From positions 16,824-80,823 of the forward strand of contig CAZMFO010000002.1 in assembly GCA_964565615.1 (NCBI GenBank): a stretch of 64,000 nt of DNA. The letters are read 5' to 3'. The stretch comes from an uncultured Candidatus Saccharibacteria bacterium (GTDB lineage Bacteria > Patescibacteriota > Saccharimonadia > Saccharimonadales > JAGQNJ01). Shown here in pieces: positions 10,219-55,533 of this stretch; the stretch's first letter is position 1, and each line of letters opens with the position of its first letter. Under the pieces are notes generated by a model. The model ran no database searches. It saw only the letters and a program-made list of their open reading frames with translations, and was not told where the DNA came from. Made by a program: the position numbers and the translations under genes.

Positions 10219-10304
10219 TCTCCTATTAATGGTATGTTGTGGATAAATAATAAAAAAAGCTTGTTTACTTAAACATAAGCAGTGTAGTACAATACTAGTT
10301 AATC

Positions 10305-27864: not shown

Positions 27865-28443
27865 ATGGTAAAGAAGAAGGGCGCTAAGTCTAAGAAGGAC
27901 TTTGCTGATCAGTTTGATGACGAAGAGGTACTATTTTTGTTCAGAAAACACCCAATCGTGATGCGGAAAGGATTGGTTATTTCAATGTTGGCAATTTTGC
28001 TAGGCACCATTCCTGCACTTATCAAACCAGAGATGTCATATTTTTACGGAGGGTTAGCTGGGGGCTTTGTTTTGGCTATCATTTTATTTATACCATCGTG
28101 GATAATCTGGTGGTACAGTGTGTTTATTGTTACAAATCAACGATTAATACAAATCACCCAGAAAGGGTTTTTTAATCGTTCGGTTGTTGATTTAGGGCTT
28201 AAAAAAATACTGGCAACTAGTTACGAAGTTAAGGGTGTGCAAGCAACGATATTAGGATTTGGTACAATAATGATACAAACATATATGGGAGATTTAATTA
28301 TTCACGAGATTCATCATCCAGCAGAAGTTATCAAACGCATTACTGAGGTGCTTCGTTCTGAAGGAATAGAGGCAGAGGAGGTGAACCCACAGGATATTAA
28401 ACAAAATAAGGAGTACGATGAAGAAGATCTCGAAGAAATTTAG
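27865..28443 (+). CDS. membrane protein with a bacterial PH (bPH_2/YdbS-like) domain
   Basis: FLFRKHPIVM..., two TM helices, then a PH-like region and an acidic tail. Confidence 0.45.
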   Translation: MVKKKGAKSKKDFADQFDDEEVLFLFRKHPIVMRKGLVISMLAILLGTIPALIKPEMSYFYGGLAGGFVLAIILFIPSWIIWWYSVFIVTNQRLIQITQKGFFNRSVVDLGLKKILATSYEVKGVQATILGFGTIMIQTYMGDLIIHEIHHPAEVIKRITEVLRSEGIEAEEVNPQDIKQNKEYDEEDLEEI

Positions 28444-29512
28444 AAGATTAAGGCTCAAAAAAAAGTCTGATACTTTGCCACTACAAGAAGTGCCAAAAAT
28501 TACTAACGAAACAGTTGCCGAACACCGAGAAGAGGTCTTGTCTAGTGCTAGAAAATACATATATCCACTCCAACACTCTAAACACAAAATTGTAATTTTA
28601 ACTGTCTCAATCGTCTTAGCAACATTTATTGCCTTTTTTTCTTATTGTGTTCTGGCTCTTTATCGGTTTCAGGCGACTTCAACATTTTTATACAAGGCTA
28701 CACAGGTTATTCCGTTCCCAATTGCTCGTCAAGGTGGGCGATTTATAGCTTACGAAAATTACTTGTTTGAGGTTCGTCGATATAAGCACTATTACGAAAA
28801 TCAACAAAAACTTGATTTTAATACTGACTATGGTCAACAGCAGTTAGCAGAGTATAAAAAGCGTGCATTAGAAAAGGTAATTAACGACGCCTATATTAAA
28901 CAAATTGCCAAAGAGAAGAAGGTTACAGTAAGCGATCGCGAGATAGAAGATCAGATTACATTGCTTCGTAATCAAGAACGCTTGGGTGGGAGTAACGATG
29001 TATTAGAGGATGTATTAGGTGAGTATTTTGGCTGGGATCGGGCAGATTTTAAGCGATACGCTAGAGATAATCTATTACGACAAAAGGTTTTAGCTGTACT
29101 TGACACAGATACGCAGGGTCGTGCTCAAAACGCAAAAGAAGAACTTGATGCTGGTAAAGACTTTGCAGAAGTTGCCAAGAGCTATTCTGACGATGTTACT
29201 ACCAAAGAAAATGGAGGCCTGTTTGGTTTTTTGATAGAGAAGTCAAGCAGAGATATTACTCCTCAAACACTCGAAGCGATTTTTAAGCTTCAGCCTGGAC
29301 AGGTTTCTGGAATAATCAACACGGGCAATTCTCTTGAAATCTATAAACTGATTGAACTTCAAGAATCAAAAAAGGCAAAGGTCGCCCATATCGTCTTTAA
29401 CTTTAAAGATATCAATCAATATCTTAATGATCGTAAAGAACAGACCAAAACGAGGACTTACATTAGCTTGCCAGAGCCACAGGTTGATTCTGTCGCTCCG
29501 CCGAAAAACTAG
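28418..29512 (+). CDS. membrane-anchored parvulin-type peptidyl-prolyl isomerase (PrsA/SurA-like)
   Basis: N-terminal TM; C-terminal PpiC-type pattern SYSDD...NGGLFGF...PGQVSGII. Confidence 0.6.
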   Translation: MKKISKKFRRLRLKKKSDTLPLQEVPKITNETVAEHREEVLSSARKYIYPLQHSKHKIVILTVSIVLATFIAFFSYCVLALYRFQATSTFLYKATQVIPFPIARQGGRFIAYENYLFEVRRYKHYYENQQKLDFNTDYGQQQLAEYKKRALEKVINDAYIKQIAKEKKVTVSDREIEDQITLLRNQERLGGSNDVLEDVLGEYFGWDRADFKRYARDNLLRQKVLAVLDTDTQGRAQNAKEELDAGKDFAEVAKSYSDDVTTKENGGLFGFLIEKSSRDITPQTLEAIFKLQPGQVSGIINTGNSLEIYKLIELQESKKAKVAHIVFNFKDINQYLNDRKEQTKTRTYISLPEPQVDSVAPPKN

Positions 29513-29626
29513 TATTTTACTTTAATTTAGTGTATGATATCGCTACAGGATTCTTAACAAGCCATTAGTTTAGTGAGTGAGTGAAGATGGTCGACCTGAA
29601 GGATTAATAGAAAGGAACTAATCTTA

Positions 29627-29947
29627 ATGGCAAGTAAGTTGTATGTCGGTGGTTTACCATATTCGACAACCGACCAAGAGTTGCAAGAGGTTTTTGCAAG
29701 TTATGGTACGGTAACATATGCTAAGGTGATTACCGATAGAGATACCGGTCGTTCAAAGGGTTTTGGTTTTGTTGAGTTTGAGTCTGAAGAAGAAGCTCAA
29801 TCAGCCACCAAGGCTCTAGACGGTAGCGAACTAGGAGGTCGCAAGATTATCGTAAACGAGGCTAAGCCTCGCGAGGATCGTCCTCGAAACGATAGACCTC
29901 ATTCTGGTGGCGACTTTAATCGAAGTTCGTCATTCCGACAAAGATAA
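29627..29947 (+). CDS. RRM-type RNA-binding protein
   Basis: RNP-2 KLYVGGL and RNP-1 KGFGFVEF motifs. Confidence 0.85.
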   Translation: MASKLYVGGLPYSTTDQELQEVFASYGTVTYAKVITDRDTGRSKGFGFVEFESEEEAQSATKALDGSELGGRKIIVNEAKPREDRPRNDRPHSGGDFNRSSSFRQR

Positions 29948-30021
29948 TTCGGAATATAAGAACCCCAAAGGAGTAATAAACTCAAGAGGGGTTCTTTTTA
30001 TTGGTATGTATAATAATTGAT

Positions 30022-30195
30022 ATGGCCAGCCCTTTAGAGAAAAGCCACTGCAAAAGAAAGGTGCGTTATTCAAATGATGCATCCGCCCAAGAAGCAATAA
30101 AGCGTATTAATCAAAATAAATCTTTGGGTAAGCCCAGACGAGTTTATAAGTGCACAATCTGTAACGGCTGGCATTTATCATCAAAACCTAAATAA
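30022..30195 (+). CDS. small hypothetical protein
   Basis: 57 codons from the ATG at 30022, downstream of a tataat-like box; followed by the hairpin cctac-gctacg-gtagg plus a T-run (30201-30220). Confidence 0.3.
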   Translation: MASPLEKSHCKRKVRYSNDASAQEAIKRINQNKSLGKPRRVYKCTICNGWHLSSKPK

Positions 30196-30229
30196 AAAAA
30201 CCTACGCTACGGTAGGTTTTACTTACACT

Positions 30230-30306
30230 TGGCGGGCTCGACCGGATTCGAACCGGCGATCTCCTCCGTGACAGGGAGGCATGTTAGGCCTCTACACCAC
30301 GAGCCC
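30230..30306 (-). tRNA. tRNA-Asp (anticodon GUC), CCA encoded
   Basis: The reverse complement folds as a cloverleaf: acceptor gggctcg/cgagccc, anticodon stem cctcc/ggagg, loop ctGTCac, T-loop ttcgaat. Confidence 0.9.
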
Positions 30307-30379
30307 AAGGTCATTTAAGACTATCAAATTCTATCAGAATATCTTTACTATTGCAATCTGTTACAATAGTGTAGTTGTT

Positions 30380-30455
30380 GCCACCTTAGCTCAGTTGGTA
30401 GAGCGACGCATTCGTAACGCGTAGGTCAGCAGTTCAATCCTGCTAGGTGGCTCCA
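30380..30455 (+). tRNA. tRNA-Thr (anticodon CGU), CCA encoded; integration target
   Basis: Acceptor gccacct/aggtggc, loop ttCGTaa, T-arm agcag-ttcaatc-ctgct. The 3' GCTCCA is the left junction of the element. Confidence 0.85.
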
Positions 30456-31986
30456 GAATACGACTTTTTTCAAGATTTGACGGCGTTGCCGTCATTTTTT
30501 GTAGGGTTTGGCGAAAGCCAAACCAAATGTTTTCTTGGGGGGAATGAGATTTTGGATCGCTGGAAGCGACCGCATTTTTGTTTTTGAGTTTGAGGTTCAA
30601 CCCGAAAATTTCCAGCAATAGCGACTTTTTGGCGTTTTGGTCGGCGGAATGAGCGATTTTACAGATAGAAACTGCTCTTTCTAGCCAATTACTCAGCGGT
30701 TCAACCCACTCTAAAGTGCCTAAATGTAAATCGCTCATTTGCTCCTCTATGGTTTTCTTTTGGCTCATAATCTCGGCTTTCTTTTGCGTGTATATTTCAC
30801 GCTCCAAAACGCCGTCAAGAAAACCGTCCAAAAGTCTTTGTAATTTCTCGGACAAATGTGTGAGTTCCCTCCGCATGCCGTTAATTTTACCGTCTATTTG
30901 CTCTTTGTCTGCCAGTTCGTCCGCAGTAGCCCACACACGCATTTTGTCCGCATATTCTTTGGGCAAAGCGAAGCCAGCCAACAGGTCAGATAACTGCTGA
31001 TCTAAAAGTTCAGAACGAACGGCAGGTTCAATACACTTCACAGTTTTGTTTTTACGGCTACACCTATAATAGACATAATGGTGCGTGTTGCCGTTCTTCT
31101 GCCGTTTCGTTTTGTTTTCAGCAGTTATCATCATTCCGCAACTGCAACGCAGTAGTCCGCAGTAGGCTTGTGGCTCTATCAAGCCTTTTGTTGGGTGGCT
31201 TCGCTGTTCTATGACGGCTTGCACTTTATCAAACAGTTTCTTGCTAATAATTGGCGTATGTTTACCCTCGTGTACCTCGCCGCCATATATGAAATGACCG
31301 TAATAAAACGGATTTTTCAAGATATATTTAACCTTGTCTTTGCTATACGGCTTACCACCGCTAGTCTTAACGCCACGCTCAAACAAATAATCTGATATAT
31401 CTTGAAAAGTGCTTTGCCCCAAAGAATATAGAACAAAAATCGCTTCAACTAATTCGGCTTGGCGTTTGTCTATATGCACCGTTTTACTTTTGGTGTTGTT
31501 ATAGTAGCCAAATGGGGCAATTCCGGGGAACTCGCCACGCCGAATTTTTTGGCGAAGCCCACGCTTGGTATTCTCGCTCAAATTATCTACATAGTATTTG
31601 CTCTGACCAAAAGCAATGTTCAGCATAAACTTACCCTGACTGGTATTCTCAAACCAAAAAGTCTGAAACTTTAAGTCAGCTAGGTGGTTTTGGTCAAGCA
31701 AATAGATAATTTGTCCACCGTCAATGCTGTTTCTTGCTAGTCTATCGGGGTGCCACGCTAGTATTGCGTTGGCTTCGCCATTTTGTATGCGTTTTAACAC
31801 TTCGGCGAACTTCGGGCGACCTGGTGTTTTAGCAGATTTCTTTTCAATAACGGTATCTATCACGACTAAGCCGTTATCTTTAGCGTACTTCCGAAGTTCT
31901 GCCAGCTGTGCCTCAATAGACAAGACTTGCTTGTCCTCAACGTCTGTACTCTTACGAGCATACAAAATGTAGCGATTTTTGTTCAT
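30391..31986 (-). CDS. large serine recombinase (integrase)
   Basis: Resolvase-type catalytic N-terminus (YILYARKSTDVEDKQVLSIEAQ, HPDRLARN), recombinase domain, Cys-rich zinc ribbon (CGLLRCSCG...YYRCSRK) and a coiled-coil region. The ORF runs through the attachment core into the tRNA-Thr sequence. Confidence 0.9.
   Translation of the reverse strand: MNKNRYILYARKSTDVEDKQVLSIEAQLAELRKYAKDNGLVVIDTVIEKKSAKTPGRPKFAEVLKRIQNGEANAILAWHPDRLARNSIDGGQIIYLLDQNHLADLKFQTFWFENTSQGKFMLNIAFGQSKYYVDNLSENTKRGLRQKIRRGEFPGIAPFGYYNNTKSKTVHIDKRQAELVEAIFVLYSLGQSTFQDISDYLFERGVKTSGGKPYSKDKVKYILKNPFYYGHFIYGGEVHEGKHTPIISKKLFDKVQAVIEQRSHPTKGLIEPQAYCGLLRCSCGMMITAENKTKRQKNGNTHHYVYYRCSRKNKTVKCIEPAVRSELLDQQLSDLLAGFALPKEYADKMRVWATADELADKEQIDGKINGMRRELTHLSEKLQRLLDGFLDGVLEREIYTQKKAEIMSQKKTIEEQMSDLHLGTLEWVEPLSNWLERAVSICKIAHSADQNAKKSLLLEIFGLNLKLKNKNAVASSDPKSHSPQENIWFGFRQTLQKMTATPSNLEKSRILEPPSRIELLTYALRMRRSTN
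30451..30586 (+). repeat. IR arm A (136 bp), left-terminal copy
   Basis: Reverse complement of 32132-32267 with one mismatch by eye (30556 vs 32162). That mismatch is synonymous (GAT/GAC Asp) in the recombinase frame. Confidence 0.9.
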
Positions 31987-32131
31987 AGCAATTACCCCCA
32001 TAATTTTAATGACCGCCCCAGTTGCGTACAATCAAGAGAAATCTTGTTTGTCTGGGACGGTCATTAAAAAAGACCTCTCTGTTAGATTGTACGCACTACC
32101 ATTTTACCAAATAAAAACCGCCTATGGCGGG

Positions 32132-32517
32132 CAAAAACAAAAATGCGGTCGCTTCCAGCGACCCAAAATCTCATTCCCCCCAAGAAAACATTTGGTTTGG
32201 CTTTCGCCAAACCCTACAAAAAATGACGGCAACGCCGTCAAATCTTGAAAAAAGTCGTATTCTGGAGCATTTCTACCGAAACGCTAGAACCTATTTTAGC
32301 AAAAACCAACAGATAAGAACAGATGTGAAGTGGAAAAAAGAGGACAACCTGCGAAACCAGCCCCGCCGTTAGCTTGCGAAAGTCGCAAGCCCGCCCCGCC
32401 AGCCCTGGATTTTGATTGTTTTTGGATTTCCCCCCGCCGAATTTCTTTTTTGTAGTTGAGAAAATCCAGGTCTGTCGGGTCGGCTGCCGAAAACGGCAGA
32501 AACGGCGTGGCTTTGGG
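32132..32517 (+). repeat. internal 386-bp unit (A' + core + B), an inverted copy of the joined element ends
   Basis: 32132-32267 is the reverse complement of 30451-30586; 32268-32517 is the reverse complement of 35372-35621 (250/250 by eye). Confidence 0.9.
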
Positions 32518-32584
32518 GCAAAACGCCTGTGCTTGGTACAGATATAGGTTCCTGTTATACTAAAGAAAAGATTTTGGAGGTTTT

Positions 32585-34762
32585 ATGTCTTTTGAAGTTG
32601 TTAAGCAATATGAAACACCGCCCAATGAGTTTAACCCGCTCGCTGGACACCCTGACCCAGAGCAATTGACACTAGATAGTCTACGTCAAGGTACTTTGCT
32701 TGCAGGGCGGGAAAAGCCGCTCACATGGGAGCTTGATGAAATCACTTCGGAAGGTGCTTTGCACCGTTACCGCGCACAAGCGGAGATTGAAGCACTTATC
32801 AACCTTGCAGAACGCGGGCCAGTCGAAGTTGAAATTGATGAGACACAAAAGGAGACCTTACGCTCACTCTACAGCTCAGAAGTGTTTGACCCAGAGGTTG
32901 TGATACGGCTTGACCACCTCGGCTACAAGGGGCGTCCGCCACTTGAGCATGACGTTAAAGCAGTTGAAGTATACCTCGCAGAGTTGCTTGACGAAGCTGA
33001 TTTGGGACATCTCAAAGAGTGGGTTCACTTCGGTATGACATCGGAAGATACCAACAACCTTGCCTATAATTACATGCTGCGCGACGCGGCAAACAAAGTT
33101 GTTATACCATCAGTGGCGCGAGTTGCCGACAGATTGGCACATCTTGCGGCTATCTATGCTGACACGCCGACACTTGGCACGACCCACGCGCAAAAGGCTT
33201 CGCCAACGACTGTCGGCAAACAGTTTGGCTACCTACTCTCAAACATCACTCAAGTTGTCGGCGAGCTGGACGAACAGCGACTGACGGGCAAATTCAGCGG
33301 CGCAGTCGGCAATCACAATCCAATGTCGGTACTTTTTCCAGATTTTGACTATGACGCATATGCAAGGGATTTTGTTGAGTCACAAGGCTTTGATTATTCG
33401 CCGGTTGAAAATCAGCGCAATAATCATTTAGCAGTAACCGATTTCCTCGATACTGTGCAGCGTCTGGCGGTTGTCGGCAAAGATGGAACCGATAATGTCT
33501 GGCTGCAAATATTGAACGGCACACTCAAGCAAAAACTGGTTGCGGGTGAAAAAGGTTCATCTACCATGTCGCACAAAATCAATCCGTGGCGACTTGAGAA
33601 CAGCGAATCATTGTTTGAACAGGCTATCGCCTTATCAGGGCGAGTAAGCGAGGGGCTTGTGGCTAGTCGCCACGAACGCGATTTATCAGATCACGATTGG
33701 CAGCGTGCCTATGGCGATATTTTAGGTAGACTGGTCGCTGGCTATAACTATTTTGCAATCCAACTTGACCGCTTGGCTGTCGATGAAGCGCAAACCGGAA
33801 AAACACTCGCCGAATCAGCAGAAGTATTAAGCGAACTAATACAAACAGCAGGTCGGGTATCGGGCGACCCCGAAGCATACGATAAGGTTGTTACACTAAC
33901 CCAGGGCAAGAAGCTTGATTATGCGGGTATTCAGGAAGTCATTAAAGCAGCTTTGCCAGACGGTGAACTACGCGACAGAGTGCTTGCTACAACCCCCGAA
34001 AGTTATACCGGTATTGCAGGCGATAAGGCGCGCGAGGCGGTGTTGGGCTGGCATGCAATCAAAGGTGTAGTTTTACGCGGCGTGCTTGATGAGTCAACCA
34101 GTGTAGACGCAGTGCTGTTTGATTTTGACAATACTTTGCACTTTGGCGACAAAGACGAATTGTTCGCGCGCTTGTCGAGTATTGCTTCGCAGCTTGGCTC
34201 TGGCTATACAGAGGAAGAAATCCGCACTTTCGGAAATCGCAGCGATTATCTCGAAATGAAAAAACTCATGGTCGAAGAACATAATCGCCGCTTCCCGAAT
34301 AGCCGCATTTCTGAGGCTGATTTTCAGGAGGCTAACGATTCGGTAACAGGCAGTTTTGACTACTTGCTCACACCAGCGCCGAGAGCAGCAGAGATTTTGG
34401 AACAGCTACGCGATTCTGGCAAAAAAACGGGGCTGGTAACAACGCGCGGCAATAATTCGCGCGATAGATTGCTACAACATCATGGCCTTGCCGATTCATT
34501 TGATGTTATTGTTGGTCGCGGCGATGCCGCGCAGCGCAAACCGCACCCGCAGCCAATCGCCCTCGCGCTTGCAAAGCTAGGCGTCGATAACTACAGGCGC
34601 ACCCTGTATGTTGGCGATTTGCAGATTGACGACGTGGGAGCGGGTAATGCGCTCGGCATGAAAACAGCACTTATAAATGACACGCCGCTTGACCCTCAGG
34701 GTCCTGTGCCGACTTACCATTGGGCATCATTAGAACCGCTAGCGCGTAGGTATACGAGGTAA
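32585..34762 (+). CDS. adenylosuccinate lyase-like (fumarate-lyase superfamily) / HAD phosphatase fusion protein
   Basis: PurB-like motifs HFGMTSEDTNN, TLGTTHAQKASPTTVGKQ, GKFSGAVGNHN and the signature GSSTMSHKINPWRLENSE. C-terminal HAD motifs VLFDFDNTL (DxDxT), LVTTRG, KPHPQP, YVGDLQIDDVGAGNA. RBS ggagg upstream. Confidence 0.75.
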   Translation: MSFEVVKQYETPPNEFNPLAGHPDPEQLTLDSLRQGTLLAGREKPLTWELDEITSEGALHRYRAQAEIEALINLAERGPVEVEIDETQKETLRSLYSSEVFDPEVVIRLDHLGYKGRPPLEHDVKAVEVYLAELLDEADLGHLKEWVHFGMTSEDTNNLAYNYMLRDAANKVVIPSVARVADRLAHLAAIYADTPTLGTTHAQKASPTTVGKQFGYLLSNITQVVGELDEQRLTGKFSGAVGNHNPMSVLFPDFDYDAYARDFVESQGFDYSPVENQRNNHLAVTDFLDTVQRLAVVGKDGTDNVWLQILNGTLKQKLVAGEKGSSTMSHKINPWRLENSESLFEQAIALSGRVSEGLVASRHERDLSDHDWQRAYGDILGRLVAGYNYFAIQLDRLAVDEAQTGKTLAESAEVLSELIQTAGRVSGDPEAYDKVVTLTQGKKLDYAGIQEVIKAALPDGELRDRVLATTPESYTGIAGDKAREAVLGWHAIKGVVLRGVLDESTSVDAVLFDFDNTLHFGDKDELFARLSSIASQLGSGYTEEEIRTFGNRSDYLEMKKLMVEEHNRRFPNSRISEADFQEANDSVTGSFDYLLTPAPRAAEILEQLRDSGKKTGLVTTRGNNSRDRLLQHHGLADSFDVIVGRGDAAQRKPHPQPIALALAKLGVDNYRRTLYVGDLQIDDVGAGNALGMKTALINDTPLDPQGPVPTYHWASLEPLARRYTR

Positions 34763-35331
34763 TGGCCGAGAAAATACCAATTTCCGGCGGGCCACACACT
34801 GGCAAAACAACGCTACTTGAAGCGTTAAGAGTGCAGTTTCCAGACGCTCATTTCGTTCCAGAACCTGCCACGAATGTAATTACAAGAGAGCTTGAAACAG
34901 AGCGAGCAAACCCAAGCCATAAACCGCGTGTACCCTGGGTAGACTATCGACAGTTCGGCCCACTCGTTGCCGAAGAATCAGAAGTGCTTGAATCAGATAT
35001 ACCAGAGGCAGCCACAATCGCTTTTCAGGACAGAAGTCTTATCGACACAATCGCATATAGCCGCCTTAATAACTTTGATGAGTTTGTGCCAGAAGTAAGC
35101 CGTAGAGTTGCAATTGCTCGGTACAGCTTTGCGCTAATTTGCCAGCCAGTCGGCGAGTATACCACTACAACAGTCAGGCGAGAAACGCAGGACGAAGCCC
35201 TACAAACACACCTAGAGATTGAGCGTGCTTATAATGAGTCTGGCATTGAAGTCATATCAATCCCTGCAATCAGTACCAATGAGCGCGTTGCGCTCATTAC
35301 AGAAGTCCTGCAATCTCGTAGCTTGGTTTGA
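34762..35331 (+). CDS. small P-loop NTPase (AAA_28/NadR-like, COG3911-type predicted ATPase or kinase)
   Basis: Walker A ISGGPHTGKTTLLEAL, FVPEPAT, FQDRSLIDTIAY; start overlaps the upstream stop (TAATG). Confidence 0.6.
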   Translation: MAEKIPISGGPHTGKTTLLEALRVQFPDAHFVPEPATNVITRELETERANPSHKPRVPWVDYRQFGPLVAEESEVLESDIPEAATIAFQDRSLIDTIAYSRLNNFDEFVPEVSRRVAIARYSFALICQPVGEYTTTTVRRETQDEALQTHLEIERAYNESGIEVISIPAISTNERVALITEVLQSRSLV

Positions 35332-35371
35332 TTTGTATATGTGTCGCTTGCGACACATGGCGGCTCTGCCG

Positions 35372-35626
35372 CCCAAAGCCACGCCGTTTCTGCCGTTTTC
35401 GGCAGCCGACCCGACAGACCTGGATTTTCTCAACTACAAAAAAGAAATTCGGCGGGGGGAAATCCAAAAACAATCAAAATCCAGGGCTGGCGGGGCGGGC
35501 TTGCGACTTTCGCAAGCTAACGGCGGGGCTGGTTTCGCAGGTTGTCCTCTTTTTTCCACTTCACATCTGTTCTTATCTGTTGGTTTTTGCTAAAATAGGT
35601 TCTAGCGTTTCGGTAGAAATGCTCCA
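35372..35626 (+). repeat. IR arm B' (250 bp + CTCCA core), right-terminal copy
   Basis: Perfect reverse complement of 32268-32517; ends ...cggtagaaatgCTCCA, 3 nt before tRNA-Gly. Confidence 0.9.
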
Positions 35627-35629
35627 TTT

Positions 35630-35703
35630 GCGGGATTAGTATAGTGATAGTACGCTTGCTTCCCAAGCAAGAGGTACGAGTTTGATTCTCGTATCCCGCA
35701 CCA
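35630..35703 (+). tRNA. tRNA-Gly (anticodon CCC), CCA encoded
   Basis: Acceptor gcgggat/atcccgc, anticodon stem cttgc/gcaag, loop ttCCCaa, T-arm acgag-tttgatt-ctcgt. Confidence 0.85.
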
Positions 35704-35752
35704 AAATACCTATGCTTGCTTATGTTACTTTAATGAACTATCATTACATACT

Positions 35753-36214
35753 ATGAAGAAATTATGGAGTAGAGAGAAGGAAACAAACTATTCAATCGAA
35801 CAGTTAAGGCAGAGAGATCTAGAGGTTTTTGATCACATTCAAAAATATGGCAAGTTATTGCTGGATACCATGGGTCTTGATGAAGCTATCAGGTTTGAAG
35901 TCGCCGAAAATCGGCAGACAGGTGAGTTTGGTTTGTCAAGACAAGTGTTCAAACGAGCAGACAAGGACGCATTTACCCTGGAGTGGTATCCTCAAACAAA
36001 AGAACCAAGAGAAGTGTCTACTATAGAAAGACGGCTCGATGAGGTCGAAGGATTGCATATCGTAGAGAGCTACATGACAGACTACACATTTCCGTACGAT
36101 AATAGGATAAGAATTCCCTCACAGATGTTTCTGGATATGATTAAGTCTGTGTTTGGTGATTTACCGCAAGATGCCGAGATCGATACAACTATATATTCTA
36201 GAACCGGGTGCTAA
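35753..36214 (+). CDS. hypothetical protein
   Basis: 153-aa ORF, no recognisable motif. Confidence 0.3.
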   Translation: MKKLWSREKETNYSIEQLRQRDLEVFDHIQKYGKLLLDTMGLDEAIRFEVAENRQTGEFGLSRQVFKRADKDAFTLEWYPQTKEPREVSTIERRLDEVEGLHIVESYMTDYTFPYDNRIRIPSQMFLDMIKSVFGDLPQDAEIDTTIYSRTGC

Positions 36215-36257
36215 AGTATCTATCATTTTTTTATACAAACTACTATAATTCTAGGCA

Positions 36258-36611
36258 ATGGCTGATGTAAAAAAATTCTTTCATGATAGGTGGGTTTTGT
36301 TGTTCTTGAGCTCTAGTTTGTTTGTTTTGGTTCTAAATACCTTATTGACCCTCCTTCGTTTGGATAGCAGTAGGGGGAGTTATATTGTTCAGTATAGGAG
36401 CAATCTGGGCTTAGGAGCTTACAACGGAGGAGATCGTACAACTTTTTTTATGTTTATTATTTTTGGAATAATGGTTTTTGCTTTTCAGATTATATTGGGT
36501 AAACGAGCCTATAAGATACATCGTCGATATAGCATTACAATATCAGCACTCTGCTTTTTGTTGCTGGTCTTAACTTTACTCGTAAGCAATTCATTACTAG
36601 CATTACGATGA
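36258..36611 (+). CDS. hypothetical membrane protein
   Basis: 117 aa, 3 predicted TM segments; ATGA-coupled to the downstream glycosyltransferase. Confidence 0.4.
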   Translation: MADVKKFFHDRWVLLFLSSSLFVLVLNTLLTLLRLDSSRGSYIVQYRSNLGLGAYNGGDRTTFFMFIIFGIMVFAFQIILGKRAYKIHRRYSITISALCFLLLVLTLLVSNSLLALR

Positions 36612-38236
36612 AGAATATTGAGATCCCTCTTCAGTCAGAAAAGAAACGACACTATCTTTTTTTTGAGAAGCTACCGGGTATCATTACTTGGTCTATTATT
36701 ATCTTGCCGTTTGTATTGAGTATTTTTGTGGCACATCTGGTAGCAGTGTTGATAATTGCTTTCTTTTTGATCTGGTTTGTTCGGGCGATAGGCTTGAATG
36801 TTCGGGTTATTCAGGGGTGGCGAACAATGAAAGCTCACGAAAAGCTCAATTGGCCAAAAATGCTTGCTCAAATAGAGGACCCAAATAAGGATTACCAGCA
36901 GACCAAGGATTTACCAAAGTGGCATTTTGATAACCTAAAGCGAATTAACAAGAATAGGTCTGTTAATCCCAAAGATATTTACCATGCAATTATTGTCGCT
37001 ACCTATAACGAAAGTCGAGATGTTTTAGAGCCGACAATAAAGTCGGTTTTAGAATCTCATTATGATATGAATAAGGTTATTTTTGTATTGGCTTTTGAGG
37101 AACGAGGCGGTAAAACGGTAGAAGAACAAGCTAAGGCCTTAGTTTCGGAATATAAAGACAAGTTTGCTTACGCTATGGCAGTCAAGCACCCCGATGGATT
37201 GCCTAACGAAGTTGTTGGCAAAGGTGGTAACATTACATACGCTGGGCGAGAACTACAAAAATACCTACAAAAACAAAACATTGACCCTCTTAATGTAATA
37301 GTTACTACTCTGGACTCGGATAATCGTCCGCACATTAATTATTTATCAGCATTAACATACACCTATGCCGTATCTCCGGAGCCTCAATTTGTTTCTTATC
37401 AGCCTATCCCGATTTTTACAAACAATATCTGGGATGTGCCGGCCCCTATGCGTGTTGTGGCAACAGGCAACTCTTTTTGGAACATCATACTATCGCTTCG
37501 GCCACATGCCTTACGCAACTTTGCTTCTCATGCACAGAATATGCAAGCCCTTATAGATACAGATTTTTGGAGTGTTCGTACAATTGTTGAAGATGGTCAT
37601 CAATTCTGGCGAACCTATTTTAGGTACGATGGCAAGCATGAGGTTTATCCAATATTTTTACCAATTTATCAGGATGCCGTTTTGGATAAAAATTATCGCC
37701 GTACACTCAAAGCTCAATTTATCCAGATGCGAAGGTGGGCATATGGCGCATCAGATATTGCTTATGTTGCCGACAAAGCTTGGTTTACTCCAAATAATAT
37801 CTCAAAAACAGATAAATTGATGAAGTTCTTAAGGCTTCTAGAAGGGCACATAAGTTGGTCAACTGCACCTCTAATTTTATCCTTCGCCGCCTTTATTCCT
37901 GCTTGGTTTAATCCCAATGACTTTGCCTCAAATCAGTTGCCACTGTTAGCAAGCCGTATTCAAACAATTGCAATGGCGGGGATTTTTATCACCTTTTTCC
38001 TTGGTATGCGAGCTTTACCACCAAGACCAAATAGATACAAGAAAAGGCGAAATTTTTGGATGATAATCCAATGGGTTTATTTGCCCTTAACTAGCATTGT
38101 GTATAGCTCATTCTCTGCTATTTATTCTCAAACACGATTATTGTTTGGGCGATATTTAGACAAGTTTGATGTTACCGAAAAAGCTGTCAAAACAGATATG
38201 GGAAAAACCGTCGTCGGCCATTCGTCCGAGAAATAG
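36608..38236 (+). CDS. membrane-embedded family 2 glycosyltransferase (processive, cellulose/chitin-synthase-like)
   Basis: AIIVATYNESRDVL, TLDSDN (DxD), QMRRWAYG (QxxRW), N- and C-terminal TM clusters. Confidence 0.75.
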   Translation: MKNIEIPLQSEKKRHYLFFEKLPGIITWSIIILPFVLSIFVAHLVAVLIIAFFLIWFVRAIGLNVRVIQGWRTMKAHEKLNWPKMLAQIEDPNKDYQQTKDLPKWHFDNLKRINKNRSVNPKDIYHAIIVATYNESRDVLEPTIKSVLESHYDMNKVIFVLAFEERGGKTVEEQAKALVSEYKDKFAYAMAVKHPDGLPNEVVGKGGNITYAGRELQKYLQKQNIDPLNVIVTTLDSDNRPHINYLSALTYTYAVSPEPQFVSYQPIPIFTNNIWDVPAPMRVVATGNSFWNIILSLRPHALRNFASHAQNMQALIDTDFWSVRTIVEDGHQFWRTYFRYDGKHEVYPIFLPIYQDAVLDKNYRRTLKAQFIQMRRWAYGASDIAYVADKAWFTPNNISKTDKLMKFLRLLEGHISWSTAPLILSFAAFIPAWFNPNDFASNQLPLLASRIQTIAMAGIFITFFLGMRALPPRPNRYKKRRNFWMIIQWVYLPLTSIVYSSFSAIYSQTRLLFGRYLDKFDVTEKAVKTDMGKTVVGHSSEK

Positions 38237-47508: not shown

Positions 47509-47585
47509 CGGGGTGTGGCGCAGTTGGCTAGCGCGTACGGCTGGGGGCCGTGAGGTCGCAGGTTCAAGTCCTGTCACCCCGACCA
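47509..47585 (+). tRNA. tRNA-Pro (anticodon GGG), CCA encoded; left boundary of the second island
   Basis: Acceptor cggggtg/caccccg, anticodon stem tacgg/ccgtg, loop ctGGGgg, T-arm gcagg-ttcaagt-cctgt. Confidence 0.85.
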
Positions 47586-47708
47586 AAAATGGACTAATTT
47601 CAGAATTGCGGCGCAAATGTGCCGTTTTTTCTTTGGCGGCACGGAGTGCCGACCAAAGAAAAAAGAGTGCTTTCGCACTCAATGTCCGAAAAGAGTCCTG
47701 AAATGGTC

Positions 47709-47928
47709 TCCCTCTACAACGAGGCTAGAGCCTATTTTATGGCAAAAAGCTGATTGCGAGAATGGTCGCTTCGCCCCGACCGCCTGTTCCAGCTAAGGCT
47801 GGAACGCCCCCGCCAGAAAGTCGCCCTTTAACTATTTAGATTACCCCGCCAATTCCATATTTTTAATGGAAAAGGCCGGATTTTCTGTCGGTTCGCCTGC
47901 GCTAAAGCGCAGAGACGGACGGGGCTTC
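47709..47928 (-). repeat. B-type repeat arm (copy C), imperfect inverted partner of 49604-49823
   Basis: The reverse complement aligns by eye with 49604-49823, with scattered substitutions and a few small indels; both end in cctcgttgYAtagggaGACCA. Confidence 0.8.
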
Positions 47929-47946
47929 TTTTGTTATTATTAAAGT

Positions 47947-48519
47947 ATGGAAATAAAGGACGAAAGAAATAGAAAAATTCTAACTAATCCTGAATCATCT
48001 TGTCCGCCTGAAATCCTTAACCAACAGGTGGCTATTGAAGTTAAGTTTGTTGGGTTTGATGGTTCACCAGCAAGCGGAATTATTGAAGTTAATGAGTTGG
48101 TTGCTGATGAGGTTAAGGCATTTTTTGAACAAGCACTACGACTTAACTTCCCAATAGAAAAAGTTGCTCCTGCTAGTGAAAGCCCTTATGAATGGAATGA
48201 TGACGTACTTATGGAAGCGAATGTTTCTTCTGGCTTCAATTATCGCTCAATCGCAGGGACTGACACGCCTTCACTACACGGCAGGGGTTTTGCTTTTGAT
48301 ATAAATCCACGACAGAACCCATATATTCGTTATAAAGACGGGCAAGAAATTGTTGCTCCTACTAATTCAATATGGCAACCAGACCAGCCAGGGACTTTAT
48401 CAGCAGAACACCCTTTAGTGCAATTTATGGTTGAGCGTGGCTGGGAGTGGGGCGGAAGCTGGACGGCTGAAAGTGGCAGAATTGACTACCAACACTTTCA
48501 AAAGAATATAGGCGATTAA
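47947..48519 (+). CDS. peptidase M15 family (VanY/D-Ala-D-Ala carboxypeptidase or L-Ala-D-Glu peptidase-like)
   Basis: SLHGRGFAFDINP (H..G.A.D zinc-ligand motif) and GWEWGGSW...DYQHF (C-terminal His ligand). Confidence 0.65.
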   Translation: MEIKDERNRKILTNPESSCPPEILNQQVAIEVKFVGFDGSPASGIIEVNELVADEVKAFFEQALRLNFPIEKVAPASESPYEWNDDVLMEANVSSGFNYRSIAGTDTPSLHGRGFAFDINPRQNPYIRYKDGQEIVAPTNSIWQPDQPGTLSAEHPLVQFMVERGWEWGGSWTAESGRIDYQHFQKNIGD

Positions 48520-49539
48520 CTACTGCTTTTGGTAAGAGTGTGGCATTACAAGATATGCGTCCCGTGCGTCAGGCATTTTGCCGTGTGCGCCAGCGTGGTT
48601 GCTAGCGTGTCCTAACTCTAGGTCAGCGGGGTCAATCATATTTTCTTCGCTAAGCTGTTCAGGCTTAATACCGCTACGCATAATTTGATAGCGAACCATT
48701 TCACGATACTGCGGTTCCCATACATCATCAGGTCTGATTTCATCGCCAGGCTTCCAATCAGGATTGGAGGTATTTACCAGTAAGCCTTGGTCATACCAAC
48801 CAGGAAAGAGGTCTTCTGGGCCTTTGTCTTTGAAGGTGTGCTGGAAGTTTTCAGCCTTAATGGCAGCAATCAAATGGACCTTTACGCTATCAACATCACC
48901 TCCGTAATGTTCTAACGCTTCGTGCATAAAGTATTCAAAACAACCAGCAGGTTCGCCGTCTATTTCAAAGCCAAGTTTTGATTCACCTTGCAGGTTTGGT
49001 CGGGTTAAATGAACAAAACCTTGCACATCTTCACCATCATGGTCTTTGAACTCAATAGCTGCAAAACCACAATCTGCAAGTCGTGCGCCAAGTACTACTT
49101 TTTCGGACGCTTTAGCAAAAAACGCATTGTAGCCAGGTAATTCACGAATACCAACGGAGTTAGTCTTTACGTTATCACCGTAACTTTCTATCTGGTCATA
49201 AAAGCCTACACCGTCAGCCGTAACACCTACCATAAGTAAATCTTCGGCTTTGATATTCAAACGTTCTGTAATGTCCTTTATGTTTAAGTCTGAACAGAGC
49301 TTGTCGTTATTGCTAAAGCCTTCGGGTGCTTGGCAACCGTTTCCTGCACAGGCAGTACCGCCTAGGGCGCAAGTTCGGCGAAGAATATCACCTACGAGCA
49401 ACTCACGTTTTGGCACTTCACCAGGCGCAACTGGTTCACGCATACGAGTAATGTATGCGAGCGTATCTTCACCAACAGCAAAACTGTCAGCGTAAGGCTG
49501 GAACGAGGGTACATTTGCTTCGGCTACTAATTCTGACAT
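48520..49539 (-). CDS. hypothetical protein; weak YfiH/DUF152-like ADC...H pattern
   Basis: 339-aa ORF. LADCGFAAIEF...GFVHLTRPN resembles the ADC...HAGW region of YfiH-type enzymes; the rest is unrecognised. Confidence 0.3.
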   Translation of the reverse strand: MSELVAEANVPSFQPYADSFAVGEDTLAYITRMREPVAPGEVPKRELLVGDILRRTCALGGTACAGNGCQAPEGFSNNDKLCSDLNIKDITERLNIKAEDLLMVGVTADGVGFYDQIESYGDNVKTNSVGIRELPGYNAFFAKASEKVVLGARLADCGFAAIEFKDHDGEDVQGFVHLTRPNLQGESKLGFEIDGEPAGCFEYFMHEALEHYGGDVDSVKVHLIAAIKAENFQHTFKDKGPEDLFPGWYDQGLLVNTSNPDWKPGDEIRPDDVWEPQYREMVRYQIMRSGIKPEQLSEENMIDPADLELGHASNHAGAHGKMPDARDAYLVMPHSYQKQ

Positions 49540-49603
49540 ATCTGTTACATATTACCACTATAAGCGGTTTTTGTCAAACTCGTGTATGATCTGTAATCTA
49601 GCG

Positions 49604-49828
49604 AAGCCCCGTCCGCCTCTGCCATTTATGGCAAGCGAACCGCCAGAAAATCCAGCCTTTTCCATTAAAATTAAGGAATTGGCGGGGTAATCTAAATAGT
49701 TAAAGGGCGACTTTCTGGCGGGGCGCGTTCCGGCCTTAGCTGGAACAGGTGGTCGGGTCTGAACGGCCATTTTCGCAATCAGCTTTTCGTCATAAAATAG
49801 ATTCTAGCCTCGTTGCATAGGGAGACCA
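49604..49828 (+). repeat. B-type repeat arm (copy C') ending in the GACCA core
   Basis: See 47709-47928. Followed by a degenerate A-type arm (49829 to about 49950) that resembles 30456-30500. Confidence 0.8.
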
Positions 49829-50014
49829 TTCGAGATTTTATGGGTTTTGAAGTACATTTTTCGTGGCTTCCTCATCTGATAATCCACAATTTATTCGCAA
49901 CTACCCATAGGGGTAGTTTCTCACGAACGAGTAACTACACAGCAATTGCTGGCCTTAGGTAGGTTAGGGTTGATAGAATAGTCCATAGGTAGGTTCCTTT
50001 CTGTAATTATCTTT

Positions 50015-50031
50015 AGGAGGAACGTCCTCCT
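50015..50031. repeat. third copy of the AGGAGGA-NNN-TCCTCCT palindrome
   Basis: aggaggaACGtcctcct immediately 3' of the minus-strand operon that ends at 50035. Confidence 0.7.
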
Positions 50032-50034
50032 TTT

Positions 50035-50745
50035 TCATATCAATCTGTTCAATAAACCACCATAATTGTAAGGGGTAAATCCATCGTCTATAAAAATGGG
50101 ATAGGCCGGACTTTTCACCTGCATTTGCTTGGCAAGTTTTTGGTCAATCGGCTGGAACGCTTCAAGGCCTTTACTTGACAGTCCAAACTTTTTCTTGTCC
50201 TCAAGTGTCATACGATACACAAAACGGTATTTCTCCAGTTTTGGTGTAGCGCTAAACTTTTCAAGTTTAGCCAGAAGTGCAATACGGTCATACCAGAGTT
50301 CTGGATTATTCAGCCGACTATCTAAGCTAATTTCAACCGATAAGCAGTTATCTGCGTATTTATTGGTGCAGTCGTAGTCTGCAACAACCATCTTGTTTAG
50401 TCCAAGTATCCACGCAATGTCATAAAGGTTTCTATTAGCAGTATCGCCAACAAATCCACAGTCGTTGTCTGGGCAGTATGTATTGTGAAAGTCCAACACT
50501 ACATCGTACTTTTTTGTCTTTTTAAGTATTTGAGCAGCTCGCTTTACCTCATACTCTTGGCTTTTAATGTTGCCAGGAAACGAACGATTTAGATCATGCT
50601 TCACAAAGCGCCAATTACCAGCAATAGCCTGTTCGTTGGCAAACAATGCGTCTACGCTGTCTAAGGGGTTAGCACGAAGTAGCTTAACAACTTCTAGTCC
50701 AAGTGGTTCATTGCCGTGCATACCACCTATTACTAGTACTCTCAT
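50035..50745 (-). CDS. succinylglutamate desuccinylase/aspartoacylase (AstE/AspA, M14-like) family zinc hydrolase
   Basis: MRVLVIGGMHGNEPLG and HDLNRSFPG motifs. Confidence 0.65.
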   Translation of the reverse strand: MRVLVIGGMHGNEPLGLEVVKLLRANPLDSVDALFANEQAIAGNWRFVKHDLNRSFPGNIKSQEYEVKRAAQILKKTKKYDVVLDFHNTYCPDNDCGFVGDTANRNLYDIAWILGLNKMVVADYDCTNKYADNCLSVEISLDSRLNNPELWYDRIALLAKLEKFSATPKLEKYRFVYRMTLEDKKKFGLSSKGLEAFQPIDQKLAKQMQVKSPAYPIFIDDGFTPYNYGGLLNRLI

Positions 50746-51446
50746 CTCTTGTACTCCTGTTCTATGTTTATTATTATGAAGTCTCGTCTGTCTGGTACGA
50801 TGCTCGCCGTCTCTACGCTACCAACCATTGAGCGGTCTCGTTGTCCTGCAAAAATTCGTACATTGCATGGGAAATCCCGCCGAGCCGCGCCAACCATTTG
50901 CGGGCTAATCGTTCTATAGGCAACAGTTTCTGCATCGAGCTGCATAGCGAGCCCTTTTACAAATAAACCGAAGTTTTGCAAATTGCCACTTTGTTTCAAA
51001 GCCTTATTTGCAAAAACTTCATCAAGCCACATTATTTCATTGTTACCCAAAGTTGTATTAAGCCAATCAGACATCTCTGGCACATCAGAGTATTTTTCCT
51101 TTGCAATGATAGAGGGGGTTGCTCGCCAAGCCACTGCTGCCATAGTCAAGTATTCTCCGTTTTGCTCGGCGTACCACGCAGTTGGACGCGAAGCCGCAAC
51201 TGTATCAAAGCGTCCTATCAGTTCGTCCGTTTCATAGGCGGGACGAGATGGACACATTTCACACATTGTACATATTGAGCCGATTGCTACGGCTGATAAT
51301 CCACCTACGCAGCGTTGTCGCTCATCGGCACATTTACTTACTTCGTACCATGGCTCGTCAGCAAAAGCTGCTTGATAAGCTGGTACAATCTCGCCATATA
51401 AAGGTTTTACTTTGTCTGGCGTATAAAAATTCTTTTGTTCACTCAT
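50742..51446 (-). CDS. hypothetical protein (Cys-rich CTMCEMC segment)
   Basis: 234-aa ORF translationally coupled (ATGA) to the downstream gene; no confident domain. Confidence 0.35.
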   Translation of the reverse strand: MSEQKNFYTPDKVKPLYGEIVPAYQAAFADEPWYEVSKCADERQRCVGGLSAVAIGSICTMCEMCPSRPAYETDELIGRFDTVAASRPTAWYAEQNGEYLTMAAVAWRATPSIIAKEKYSDVPEMSDWLNTTLGNNEIMWLDEVFANKALKQSGNLQNFGLFVKGLAMQLDAETVAYRTISPQMVGAARRDFPCNVRIFAGQRDRSMVGSVETASIVPDRRDFIIINIEQEYKR

Positions 51447-51534
51447 TATCTAATTCCTTTAACAATTTACTTAGTAGATAATCTAAAAACGCCAGCCTCA
51501 AGTGCTGGCGTTTACTTTTTACAAAAGTAATTAT

Positions 51535-51867
51535 TTACACAGCACGGGCTGGCGGAATATGTGAGTGGTGTGTATCTACAACTTTTAGTGCTGCCTGATA
51601 GCCGTTACAACCGTTTTGCAACCAATTGCTAATCCGAGCAACAGTACGGCTACTTAGCTTAGTTTTAGCAACAATGTCAGTATATTTTTTACCAGCTTGC
51701 AACATTTTGGCGGCTTCAAACCGTGCGCTGATTTCGGCGATTTCTTTCTTGGTCATAACATCACGCAAGAAGTCCTGCATTGTTTGCTGGTTATCAATAG
51801 CGGTCAACGCCCCAGCGAGCTGCTGTGCGGTTTCAGATTGCCAAATTGTAGTCTTATCTGCAGACAT
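51535..51867 (-). CDS. TrpR-related YerC/YecD-family DNA-binding protein
   Basis: FLRDVMTKKEIAEISARFEAAKMLQAGKKYTDIVAKTKLSSRTVARISNWLQNG matches the YerC/YecD TrpR-like pattern. Confidence 0.7.
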   Translation of the reverse strand: MSADKTTIWQSETAQQLAGALTAIDNQQTMQDFLRDVMTKKEIAEISARFEAAKMLQAGKKYTDIVAKTKLSSRTVARISNWLQNGCNGYQAALKVVDTHHSHIPPARAV

Positions 51868-51940
51868 AGTATTAGTTTACCAAAGTAAAGCATACTTGTC
51901 AATAATGATTTTATATTTCAATATAATCTTTCTGTATTAC

Positions 51941-52207
51941 CGACCGCCAGGCCGTTTCTGCCCTTTTGGGCAGGCGACCCGACTGACTTGATTTTTTCTC
52001 AACTGAAAAAAGAAATTTGGTTGGGGTAAAAATCAAGAAATTGTAAAAATCAGGGCTGGCGGAGCGGGTCAGCCTTTTCACCCCACAAAATTCGCTGCGC
52101 TGGATTATTGAGGGGACCCCGATTTGGCTGGAAACAGTAGGGCTTGGTTTCTCGTTTTCAGCTATTTGCCATAAAATAGGTTCTAGTCTCGTTGTAGAGG
52201 CAAATCA
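51941..52207 (+). repeat. B-type repeat arm (copy D), diverged
   Basis: Shares gccgtttctgcc-hairpin, cgacccgac, ttctcaact.aaaaaagaaatt, cagggctggcgg.gcggg and ccataaaataggttctag.ctcgttgtagagg with 35372-35621 and 49604-49823. Confidence 0.7.
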
Positions 52208-52408
52208 GCATACTTAAGATGGATCGATTGTTGCTCGTTGTTTAAGATGGTGATCTTATTTTTGCTTTGATAAAATAGTTAAATTTTGGTGGGTTTGAAA
52301 CAGGGTAGGGATCTGTATATTTACTGGTTTAACTGGTTGCATAAGGAGTATAGTTGAGATATTATGCTATGTTATAAGTTTAACTACCATAAAACTTAAT
52401 CATAAACA

Positions 52409-55104: not shown

Positions 55105-55533
55105 TTTGCCAGGTTATCGGTTAGTCGCTCTGCACCCACAATTTACTTAAATGAGTAAAATATTGAGTTGTTGTGGGTGCAGAGAGGAAAGTCCGGGCAA
55201 CTTAGGGAAGGGCAGTTGCTAACAGCAACCAGAGGTAACTCTAGGGAAAGTGCCACAGAAACTAAACTGTCTCGTACCCTCTGTAGATGAATAGTATAGT
55301 CTATAGAAGGTACGAGGCAAAGGTGAAAAGAGCGAGGTAAGAGCTCGCAGTTAATTATGGTGACATAATTAAGGGGTAAACCCTGTCCGTTGCAAGGTAG
55401 TGTATTATTTGTGCTTTTGCACAATAGTGTCCCGCTAAATATACGATTTAATCCGCTCGATCTAGGAGGCAACTTCTAGACTAGATAGATGACTAGCTAT
55501 TACAGAACCCGGCTTATAGATAGGCTGGCAAAC
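55105..55533 (+). ncRNA. rnpB: RNase P RNA (bacterial type A)
   Basis: Conserved gaggaaagtccgggc (55183-55197), ggtaagagc, acagaacccggcttat near the 3' end, and P1 pairing tgccag/ctggca. Confidence 0.85.

Follow-up and report, generated by a model that had tools for sequence, protein, structure and literature searches.

Integrative elements of large serine recombinases, including phiC31, Bxb1, A118, SPbeta (SprA), Tn4451 (TnpX) and SCCmec (CcrAB), share one set of protein domains, a short core and the logic of attB, attP, attL and attR sites, and insert site-specifically. Canonical large serine integrases do not recombine attL with attP or attP with attR, and they need a directionality factor for the recombination of attL with attR. 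The element described here occupies positions 30456–35626 of the window, i.e., the whole analyzed stretch of 64,000 nt from an uncultured Candidatus Saccharibacteria bacterium (assembly GCA_964565615.1, contig CAZMFO010000002.1, positions 16,824–80,823). Its best explanation, and probably the correct one, is a serine-recombinase integrative element inserted at the 3′ end of tRNA-Thr and belonging to a large family of elements in Patescibacteria that carry an inverted internal attP. It shares the features listed above, including a motif common to the B and P half-sites that lies 4 nt further out in P. It differs from the described serine-integrase elements in having a second complete, inverted attP inside, arms of 130–430 nt instead of approximately 25 nt, an integrase reading frame that crosses attP, and targets that are the 3′ ends of many tRNAs, reached via a core in the discriminator region.

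The yeast 2-micron plasmid (FLP/FRT, 599-bp inverted repeats) has a similar geometry, being a circle split by two long, near-identical, site-bearing repeats with the recombinase on one segment, for which inversion isomers are expected. However, FLP is a tyrosine recombinase, and the plasmid replicates autonomously, is partitioned, does not integrate, and amplifies its copy number by inversion. Phages Mu (G segment) and P1 (C segment, 0.6-kb inverted repeats) and the Salmonella Hin system resemble the locus in using a serine recombinase and crossover sites at the edges of inverted repeats that bracket a segment. These are small invertases, which depend on a Fis-dependent enhancer and switch host-range or flagellin genes, not integration machinery. 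The enzyme here is an integrase of 531 aa, and the arms of the element are identical, so that inversion restores the same sites and flanks and only the disordered integrase tail changes.

Two inverted attP sites around a cassette, at which a double attP × attB reaction exchanges or inverts the cassette, are found in the man-made landing pads of phiC31 recombinase-mediated cassette exchange and MiMIC. A natural inverted attP pair was not met in the literature searched, which included few subscription journals; there, such pairs are known only as engineered cassette-exchange pads. The preliminary description likewise knew of no prokaryotic serine-integrase element with this geometry. Integrons use the tyrosine recombinase IntI and folded single-strand attC sites with cassettes in direct order, whereas here the enzyme is a serine recombinase and the P copies bracket the cargo as inverted pairs; integron-like excision of a single segment is excluded because the core is asymmetric. 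The tycheposons of Prochlorococcus and tRNA-targeting islands in general are likewise small elements that bring cargo to the tRNA genes of streamlined bacteria, accrete in tandem and decay into islands. Tycheposons mostly use tyrosine recombinases and are not known to have an inverted internal attachment site. The element is not a 2-micron-type plasmid, not a Hin/Gin-type switch and not an integron. Its layout is real and, apparently, hitherto undescribed; it is widespread and equipped with a conserved fold that matches no Rfam family. An intact inverted attP retained in the integrated form challenges the simple attL/attR picture.

Structure of the Element at tRNA-Thr

The preliminary description, made from the sequence alone, had held block 32132–32517 to be the reverse complement of the joined ends of the element. 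A repeat search over positions 28000–38000 bears this out. The first inverted pair joins 32263–32517 to 35372–35626 (255 nt, 255/255 identical), where an identity of 250/250 had been counted by eye over 35372–35621; the second joins 30450–30586 to 32132–32268 (137 nt, 136/137 identical, 99%). The lone mismatch, A versus G at position 30556, falls in the third codon position of an Asp codon (GAT/GAC) of the minus-strand integrase open reading frame (ORF) and is synonymous, as had been reported. A chance origin of the two pairs is excluded because the only further inverted pair in the 10 kb searched is 21 nt long.

The two pairs overlap at 32263–32268 in TGGAGC, which is GCTCCA on the opposite strand, and the internal block reads as the reverse complement of right end, core and left end. 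The 6-bp core GCTCCA is found at 30450–30455, at 32263–32268 (reverse complement) and at 35621–35626, and is identical to the last six nucleotides, including CCA, of tRNA-Thr(cgt) at 30380–30455. The right end of the element lies 3 nt before tRNA-Gly(ccc) at 35630–35703. The limits of the recombinase and cargo segments, which are unique sequence, are those originally given (30587–32131 and 32518–35371).

An empty target site is present in a metagenome contig (L086), which has tRNA-Asp, tRNA-Thr(cgt) ending in ...GGTGGCTCCA, the nucleotides TTAT, tRNA-Gly(ccc), and then homologues of the genes downstream in the window. Since the two tRNA genes are 4 nt apart in this relative, the 5.17-kb segment 30456–35626 is an insertion, with exactly the predicted ends. 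The integrated form consists of attL, an inverted internal attP and attR. The proposed geometry, a circle in which two inverted attP copies separate the recombinase from the cargo, agrees with the sites found.

tRNA-Asp(gtc) lies on opposite strands relative to tRNA-Thr in the window (30230–30306; also in L023) and in the empty-site contig (301–378), which points to a small local inversion or rearrangement beside the integration hotspot.

Conservation of the Layout in Patescibacteria

Homologues of the integrase are numerous (7904 at E ≤ 1e-20 among 8000 candidates scored). A scan of one genome per species gave 77 loci, almost all in the ultra-small Patescibacteria (CPR), including Saccharibacteria, Paceibacteria, Nomura-, Morani-, Zambryskii-, Taylor- and Sungii-bacteria, and others. 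Self-comparison revealed inverted repeats around the integrase in at least 48 of the 77 loci, with arms of 56–185 nt spaced 1.5–1.7 kb apart, and at most loci lacking visible repeats the contig ends at that very spot. In 19 loci with enough flank, the two repeat pairs abut and share 5–6 nt, which in every case form the discriminator-CCA end of a tRNA (Thr, Lys, Gln, Leu, Arg, and others). Over 10 different tRNAs serve as targets. The nearest example (L007) is located at tRNA-Thr(ggt) and has an integrase 85% identical to that of the window, the same 137-nt and 253-nt repeats, and a different cargo. The sole gene common to elements of the family is the integrase. The order tRNA-core-P′ / integrase segment / inverted (P-core-P′) / cargo segment / P-core-flank is conserved in the family, which answers the question, raised by the preliminary description, of whether the inverted-repeat architecture is kept in related elements.

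The preliminary description had also considered a fold-back chimera. Assembly artefacts of this kind, graph mis-traversal, or a chance nesting of two elements are extremely improbable as an explanation. Repeats longer than k do confuse assemblers. However, the layout is conserved across many independent assemblies and is therefore not an artefact: it recurs in at least 19 of them, which come from separate projects, were made with different assemblers, include contigs as long as 622 kb and differ in cargo and target; the arms of 135–137 nt are below the k of 141 and the read length; and the borders of the repeats are exactly where unitig contigs of other samples end. The repeats also explain assembly breaks at these loci in many Patescibacteria, which matters for users of genome bins.

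An assembly error was probably met at one locus, L037 (5467–15738), where the integrase is flanked by a perfect inverted repeat of 4352 bp, with the complete cargo plus 279 nt of flanking host sequence in each arm. This palindrome is most likely a mis-traversal of the assembly graph through the repeats and a warning for the use of genome bins.

The arms are 95–100% identical within an element, compared with approximately 91% (P) and 88–92% (P′) between the window and L007. The rare differences between arms of one element sit near the distal edges. This pattern is the one typical of repeats in concerted evolution and supports the homogenisation that had been proposed from the near-identity of the copies. 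The identity may be maintained by gene conversion or by repeated recombination.

The search of IMG/VR for relatives, the attP motif and the P motif was empty, and a phage origin was rejected; the element was likewise absent from the viral and plasmid-like collections searched.

In L007 (6540–6572) and L001 (1040–1108), the host sequence adjoining the outer P arm resembles P′ arms or P motifs of other members (e.g., GGATACGACTTTT). This resemblance suggests that new elements may insert into the attL of older ones and accumulate at one tRNA.

Core, Crossover, and Target Choice

The three sites of 15 elements were aligned. In L045, L049 and L065, what the three sites share is reduced to CAC, corresponding to tRNA positions 72–74, which places the crossover dinucleotide at positions 72–73 or 73–74. 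Dinucleotide 72–73 is non-palindromic in every element examined (CT, CA, AG), and 73–74 is so except in L026, where the AGCCA core gives GC. With the known chemistry of serine recombinases, an asymmetric crossover makes the internal site truly inverted relative to both outer sites. Recombination between the internal and an outer site can then only invert a segment and never excise it. Excision of the whole element is possible only between the two outer sites, and the resulting circle has two attP copies in inverted orientation.

Two models were rejected at this point. In one, each segment forms its own circle, with a palindromic site (P-core-P reversed, or P′ reversed-core-P′); the core narrows to the non-palindromic positions 72–74. 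In the other, by analogy with CTX phage and integron attC, the duplex attP arises by folding of a single-strand circle; the double-strand exchange of serine recombinases would leave hairpin-capped chromosome ends.

The sequence GGTTC is located 25 nt from the CCA end in the tRNA half-site and 29 nt from it in the P arm, where it is contained in the invariant motif TAAAAT(A/G)GGTTCTAG; the TAAAATAGGTTCTAGC motif mimics the tRNA T-arm. In A118-type integrases, the motif of the zinc domain is shifted 4 nt outward in attP compared with attB, and the P-arm GGTTC, 4 nt further from the core than that of the tRNA, matches this shift. The target tRNAs track the discriminator base in the core, which is U in CTCCA, A in CACCA and G in AGCCA elements. 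The discriminator base suffices to explain target choice, and RNA-guided choice, which was also considered, is unnecessary.

Recombinase

By every feature tested, the element is a member of the large-serine-integrase elements. Pfam domains of the protein are Resolvase (PF00239, 9.6e-25), Recombinase (PF07508, 6.9e-20) and Zn_ribbon_recom (PF13408, 4.5e-07). Residues Y9, R11 and K12 of the catalytic motif are invariant and S13 is nearly so among 65 homologues. The closest solved structure is that of the SPbeta integrase, with residues 53–437 aligned, and the AlphaFold model has long helices at 343–390 and 396–422, i.e., a zinc ribbon with an embedded coiled coil. Exact look-up of the integrase sequence gave no match; the cluster representative P0001 is identical to it.

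The integrase reading frame continues through the P′ arm and then the core to a stop within the antisense strand of tRNA-Thr, the minus strand of the P′ arm encoding residues ~468–512. The AlphaFold model is confident to residue ~475. A P′-encoded helix at 483–499, in which W488, L491 and R492 are conserved, is moderately confident, and residues 501–531, across the core and past it, are disordered (predicted local distance difference test 32–38).

An 82-aa ORF (32124–32372), formed by the spare integrase 3′ end fused to the P arm, was considered as a small regulator. Its start codon and upstream frame are not conserved in 16 elements, and it is probably not a gene.

Content of the Arms

The terminator scan found three terminator-like hairpins in the P′ arm, reading from the core into the element. 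The stem of one hairpin on the opposite strand (30505–30524, GGTTTGGCGAAAGCCAAACC) encodes the invariant W-x-x-L-R of the integrase (residues 488–494); in other lineages, GGCGGCGC...GCGCCGCC is found at this hairpin and is translated as WAALCAA.

The distal 150–175 nt of the P arm contain a conserved fold. In an alignment of 15 elements analyzed with RNAalifold, it has 31 pairs, of which 23 show compensatory double changes. A structure of 36 pairs and seven helices was then counted on 22 distinct sequences. In it, 86.7% of cells are paired vs. 35–48% when the partners are slid, with 134 double-change cells vs. 15–56 in the slid controls and a covariation score of 0.449 vs. 0.05–0.17. None of 500 shuffles reached the observed percentage of paired cells, number of double-change cells or covariation score; the weaker measures were reached by 11 of 500 (pairs with compensatory change) and 85 of 500 (further standard pair types). 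Helix 1 differs in sequence between the two copies in L016, L019, L022, L025 and L080, and both copies still form the hairpin. With covariance model R1, both copies in every Saccharibacteria element match the fold, and weaker matches occur in elements of Morani-, Zambryskii-, Taylor- and Sungii-bacteria. No Rfam 15 family matched it at gathering score in the window, and matches in 35330–35640 were at chance level only. The P fold may act as RNA or as folded DNA; it is a new structured element, conserved in an attachment arm.

Starts of cargo genes always adjoin a P copy, which weighs toward a role of P as a 5′ leader or riboswitch of the cargo. This role is weakened by the promoter-like site downstream of P in the unique segment and by the lack of an Rfam match. 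At 16 loci with cargo genes in one direction, the starts adjoin the distal end of one P copy, pointing away from the internal site in 10 and toward it in six. Three loci are mixed: L031 and L050 are cleanly convergent from both P copies, and L065 has internal genes off this pattern as well.

The arms also figure in a rival explanation, in which the internal copy is never used by the integrase, the arms are boundary modules (terminators, or promoter and fold) needed on each side of each segment, and the rare inversions and arm identity come only from RecA-type homologous recombination between the 137-nt and 255-nt repeats. We consider it unlikely, though deserving of attention. It is favored by the functional-looking content of the arms (terminators and fold), by mismatches restricted to the distal edges, as repeat conversion expects, by the rarity of flipped copies described below, and by the behavior of canonical integrases, which would not act on attL × attP. 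Against it, the repeat always takes in the exact core and both half-sites and ends there, and insulation alone needs none of that. Homologous recombination also cannot make a derivative (L053, below) in which, precisely from the core on, the 3′ end of a second tRNA stands in place of the P side.

Probable Use of the Internal Site

Traces of site use are found in the integrase tails, which are either translated tRNA or translated P arm (...FYNxARTYF..., the in-frame translation of GCTAGAACCTATTTT). The P-type tail occurs in 13 of the best 120 homologues. An identical integrase body exists with both tails, as P0130 in the integrated copy L009 and as P0131 on a 3337-bp contig (L087). The order of the latter, core-arm-integrase-arm-core-P-cargo-P (first 104 nt), is that of the whole element circularly permuted, and a base specific to the 3′ arm (position 122) is linked to P inside one 141-mer. 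The junction of integrase 3′ arm, core and P in L087 is real and fits a circle or a flipped copy. L087 and L088 are both circle-like permutations with this junction; a flipped integrated copy gives the same one, and no contig closes on itself.

The preliminary description had proposed flipping of one segment relative to the other, or two integration isomers. Both orientations do exist in nature. In L050, a 149-kb contig, tRNA-Leu(taa) is followed by P′ and by an integrase in the same direction with a P tail; its relative L049 carries the integrase in the usual orientation at this tRNA. A second flipped copy (L052) lies at tRNA-Val. In the third (L089), host genes are followed by tRNA-Ser, a 135-nt arm and an integrase with P tail, an arrangement confirmed by the independent contig L090. 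L032 has only 75 nt between the tRNA and the integrase start and was left out of the count. The expected equal share of orientations is not seen: approximately three of 46 integrated loci are flipped, and approximately 43 have the integrase 3′ end converging on the tRNA.

A different rearrangement is present in L053, the complete Nomurabacteria chromosome CP060229.1, where, at 8420–11579, the 3′ ends of tRNA-Tyr and tRNA-Leu enclose a 2.7-kb integrase segment with 167-nt inverted arms that lacks both P arm and cargo. From its arrangement, it looks like the product expected if an internal attP recombined with a second tRNA target, and like a natural counterpart of the double attP × attB event in engineered pads.

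These cases would be accounted for if the internal copy is a working attP, giving rise to the rare flipped copies and to derivatives of the L053 type. Inversion of the integrase segment would then be possible and rarely fixed. The two-fold symmetry of the design would give every isomer a terminator facing the tRNA, an integrase insulated on both sides, and a cargo between P arms, and the P arms may also serve as shared homology for cargo swapping. For recombinase biology and tool building, the family parallels in nature the engineered cassette-exchange pads, and its integrase is compact and apparently needs no known helper for excision.

Several observations weigh against an integrative element with a working internal attP. 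The rules of canonical integrases, which exclude attL × attP and attP × attR, speak against it. The flipped fraction of approximately 3/46 falls short of the one half expected from two equivalent attP copies; the bias may arise if newly made integrase preferentially binds the attP into which its gene reads, or if the flipped state is selected against. The evidence for inversion and excision comes from assembled contigs of other genomes, not from reads of the window. No directionality factor turned up, and no search aimed at a host- or cargo-encoded factor was made. Counts of cargo orientation (10, six and three) are soft, as short reads cannot phase 250-nt arms. For the fold, the strand count is 30 G.T vs. 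22 A.C on 22 sequences (p = 0.33; on 15 sequences, 23 G.U vs. 12 A.C). The P arm also contains TGnTAAAAT, approximately 30 nt from the core and facing outward, a candidate promoter found by eye; from it, the downstream gene, here tRNA-Gly, which the insertion separates from the tRNA promoter, could be transcribed.

A more far-reaching proposal goes beyond the inverted internal attP. In it, the elements would move without a directionality factor, the integrase would use the internal attP to invert the integrase or cargo segment or to bridge two tRNA genes, thereby controlling its own activity or reshuffling chromosomes, and the P fold would be a new kind of functional RNA or folded DNA that works together with a serine recombinase during regulation, priming or synapsis. 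We regard it as tentative and on balance unlikely.

The two tails also allow inversion to be viewed as a switch of the integrase C-terminus, with the tRNA tail marking an integrated, quiescent state and the element tail an active circle; the switch would replace the directionality factor, and flipped integrated copies would be rare through fast excision. In every member the frame reads across the core, identical bodies are found with either tail, and the P-type tail is found on circle-like contigs and rare flipped copies. Nevertheless the disorder predicted for residues 501–531, the variable tail length and stop position, the conserved ARTYF, which merely translates the DNA motif GCTAGAACCTATTTT, and the spare copy without a start codon of its own all count against such a switch, which is decidedly doubtful.

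A truly 2-micron-like biology, in which the circle replicates, the P fold is an origin or primer, and inversion during replication amplifies copy number, is very improbable. The geometry matches, as had been pointed out at the outset, circle-type junctions are fairly common among database integrase genes (13/120), and each repeat has a conserved structured domain. However, the recombinase is of the serine and not the tyrosine type, neither replication origin nor amplification is evidenced, no replication or partition gene was seen among the window ORFs and their Pfam domains, only the integrase is conserved while the cargo varies, and the viral and plasmid-like collections searched lack the element.

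Cargo and Gene Gain

The cargo has a G+C content of approximately 0.49–0.51 vs. 0.36–0.42 in the flanks. Its first protein, the adenylosuccinate-lyase-like/HAD fusion, is identical on five other contigs, whose DNA is 99.9–100% identical to the window. Two unitig contigs of 2914 bp end exactly 30 nt into each repeat, and in contig L001 another flank adjoins this cargo and P arm at the core. In the family, the cargo is 1–7 kb long and unrelated between elements, including proteins of no assigned family, a PPDK-like enzyme, a threonyl-tRNA synthetase, a PGDYG protein and a VirD4/TraG-like ATPase. The two segments behave as modules, and elements that are otherwise alike exchange their cargo.

The genomes of Patescibacteria are tiny, and how these bacteria exchange genes is little understood. 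Given its very large size, its many tRNA targets, the diversity of its cargo and the islands it leaves, the family is probably a principal means by which they acquire genes.

A Decayed Element and Other Features of the Window

A relic of the family, which has lost its integrase, is present at tRNA-Pro (Table 1), with slightly raised G+C content (0.42–0.45). This island and the older P′-like flank in L007 compare with the accretion and decay of tycheposons.

Table 1. Positions of the element at tRNA-Thr, its relic at tRNA-Pro and their parts in the window.
Feature	Position	Strand	Basis or remark
tRNA-Thr(cgt); 3′ end is left half of target site (B)	30380–30455	+	ARAGORN, Rfam tRNA, empty-site homologue L086
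P′ arm at attL (arm3)	30456–30586	+	Second inverted pair, terminator scan, ORF translation
Large serine recombinase gene, 531 aa	30394–31986	-	Pfam domains, closest solved structure, AlphaFold model
Unique segment X between inverted P′ arms: integrase codons 1–467 and 145 nt upstream	30587–32131	.	Repeats, ORFs
Internal site S2, complete inverted attP (P-core-P′)	32132–32517	-	Inverted repeats; kept in 19 loci
S2, P′ copy	32132–32262		
S2, core	32263–32268		
S2, P copy	32269–32517		
Folded domain of P arm, internal copy	32361–32513	-	Covariance model R1, 153.9 bits; covariation counts
Cargo segment, unique	32518–35371		
Candidate sigma-70-like promoter of cargo operon	32533–32561	+	TTGGTA, 17 nt, TATACT, TG before; consensus scan only
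Cargo gene 1, adenylosuccinate-lyase-like/HAD hydrolase fusion, 725 aa	32585–34762	+	Pfam Lyase_1, ASL_C, HAD_2
Cargo gene 2, AAA_28 P-loop protein, 189 aa	34762–35331	+	Pfam
P arm and core at attR	35372–35626	+	Folded domain 35376–35528, linker, TAAAATAGGTTCTAGC motif, core 35621–35626
tRNA-Gly(ccc), right flank of target site (B′)	35630–35703	+	ARAGORN; adjoins tRNA-Thr in empty site L086
Decayed integrase-less family relic	47509–52208	.	BLAST, nhmmer, P-arm alignment, R1 matches, Pfam
Relic, target tRNA-Pro(ggg)	47509–47585		
Relic, 118-nt remnant of two degenerate inverted P′ halves	47586–47703		Replaces integrase segment
Relic, P copy A	47704–47927		Inverted
Relic, cargo 1: Peptidase_M15_4 and gene of no assigned family	Between P copies A and B		
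Relic, P copy B	49604–49829		
Relic, cargo 2: AstE/AspA-like, gene of no assigned family, Trp_repressor-like	Between P copies B and C		
Relic, P copy C	51944–52208		
Copies of the P fold, five in the window	35376–35528, 32361–32513, 47775–47926, 49605–49757, 51944–52097		

The window further contains a gene for bacterial class A RNase P RNA at 55109–55532 (253.9 bits), which is ordinary and unrelated to the element.

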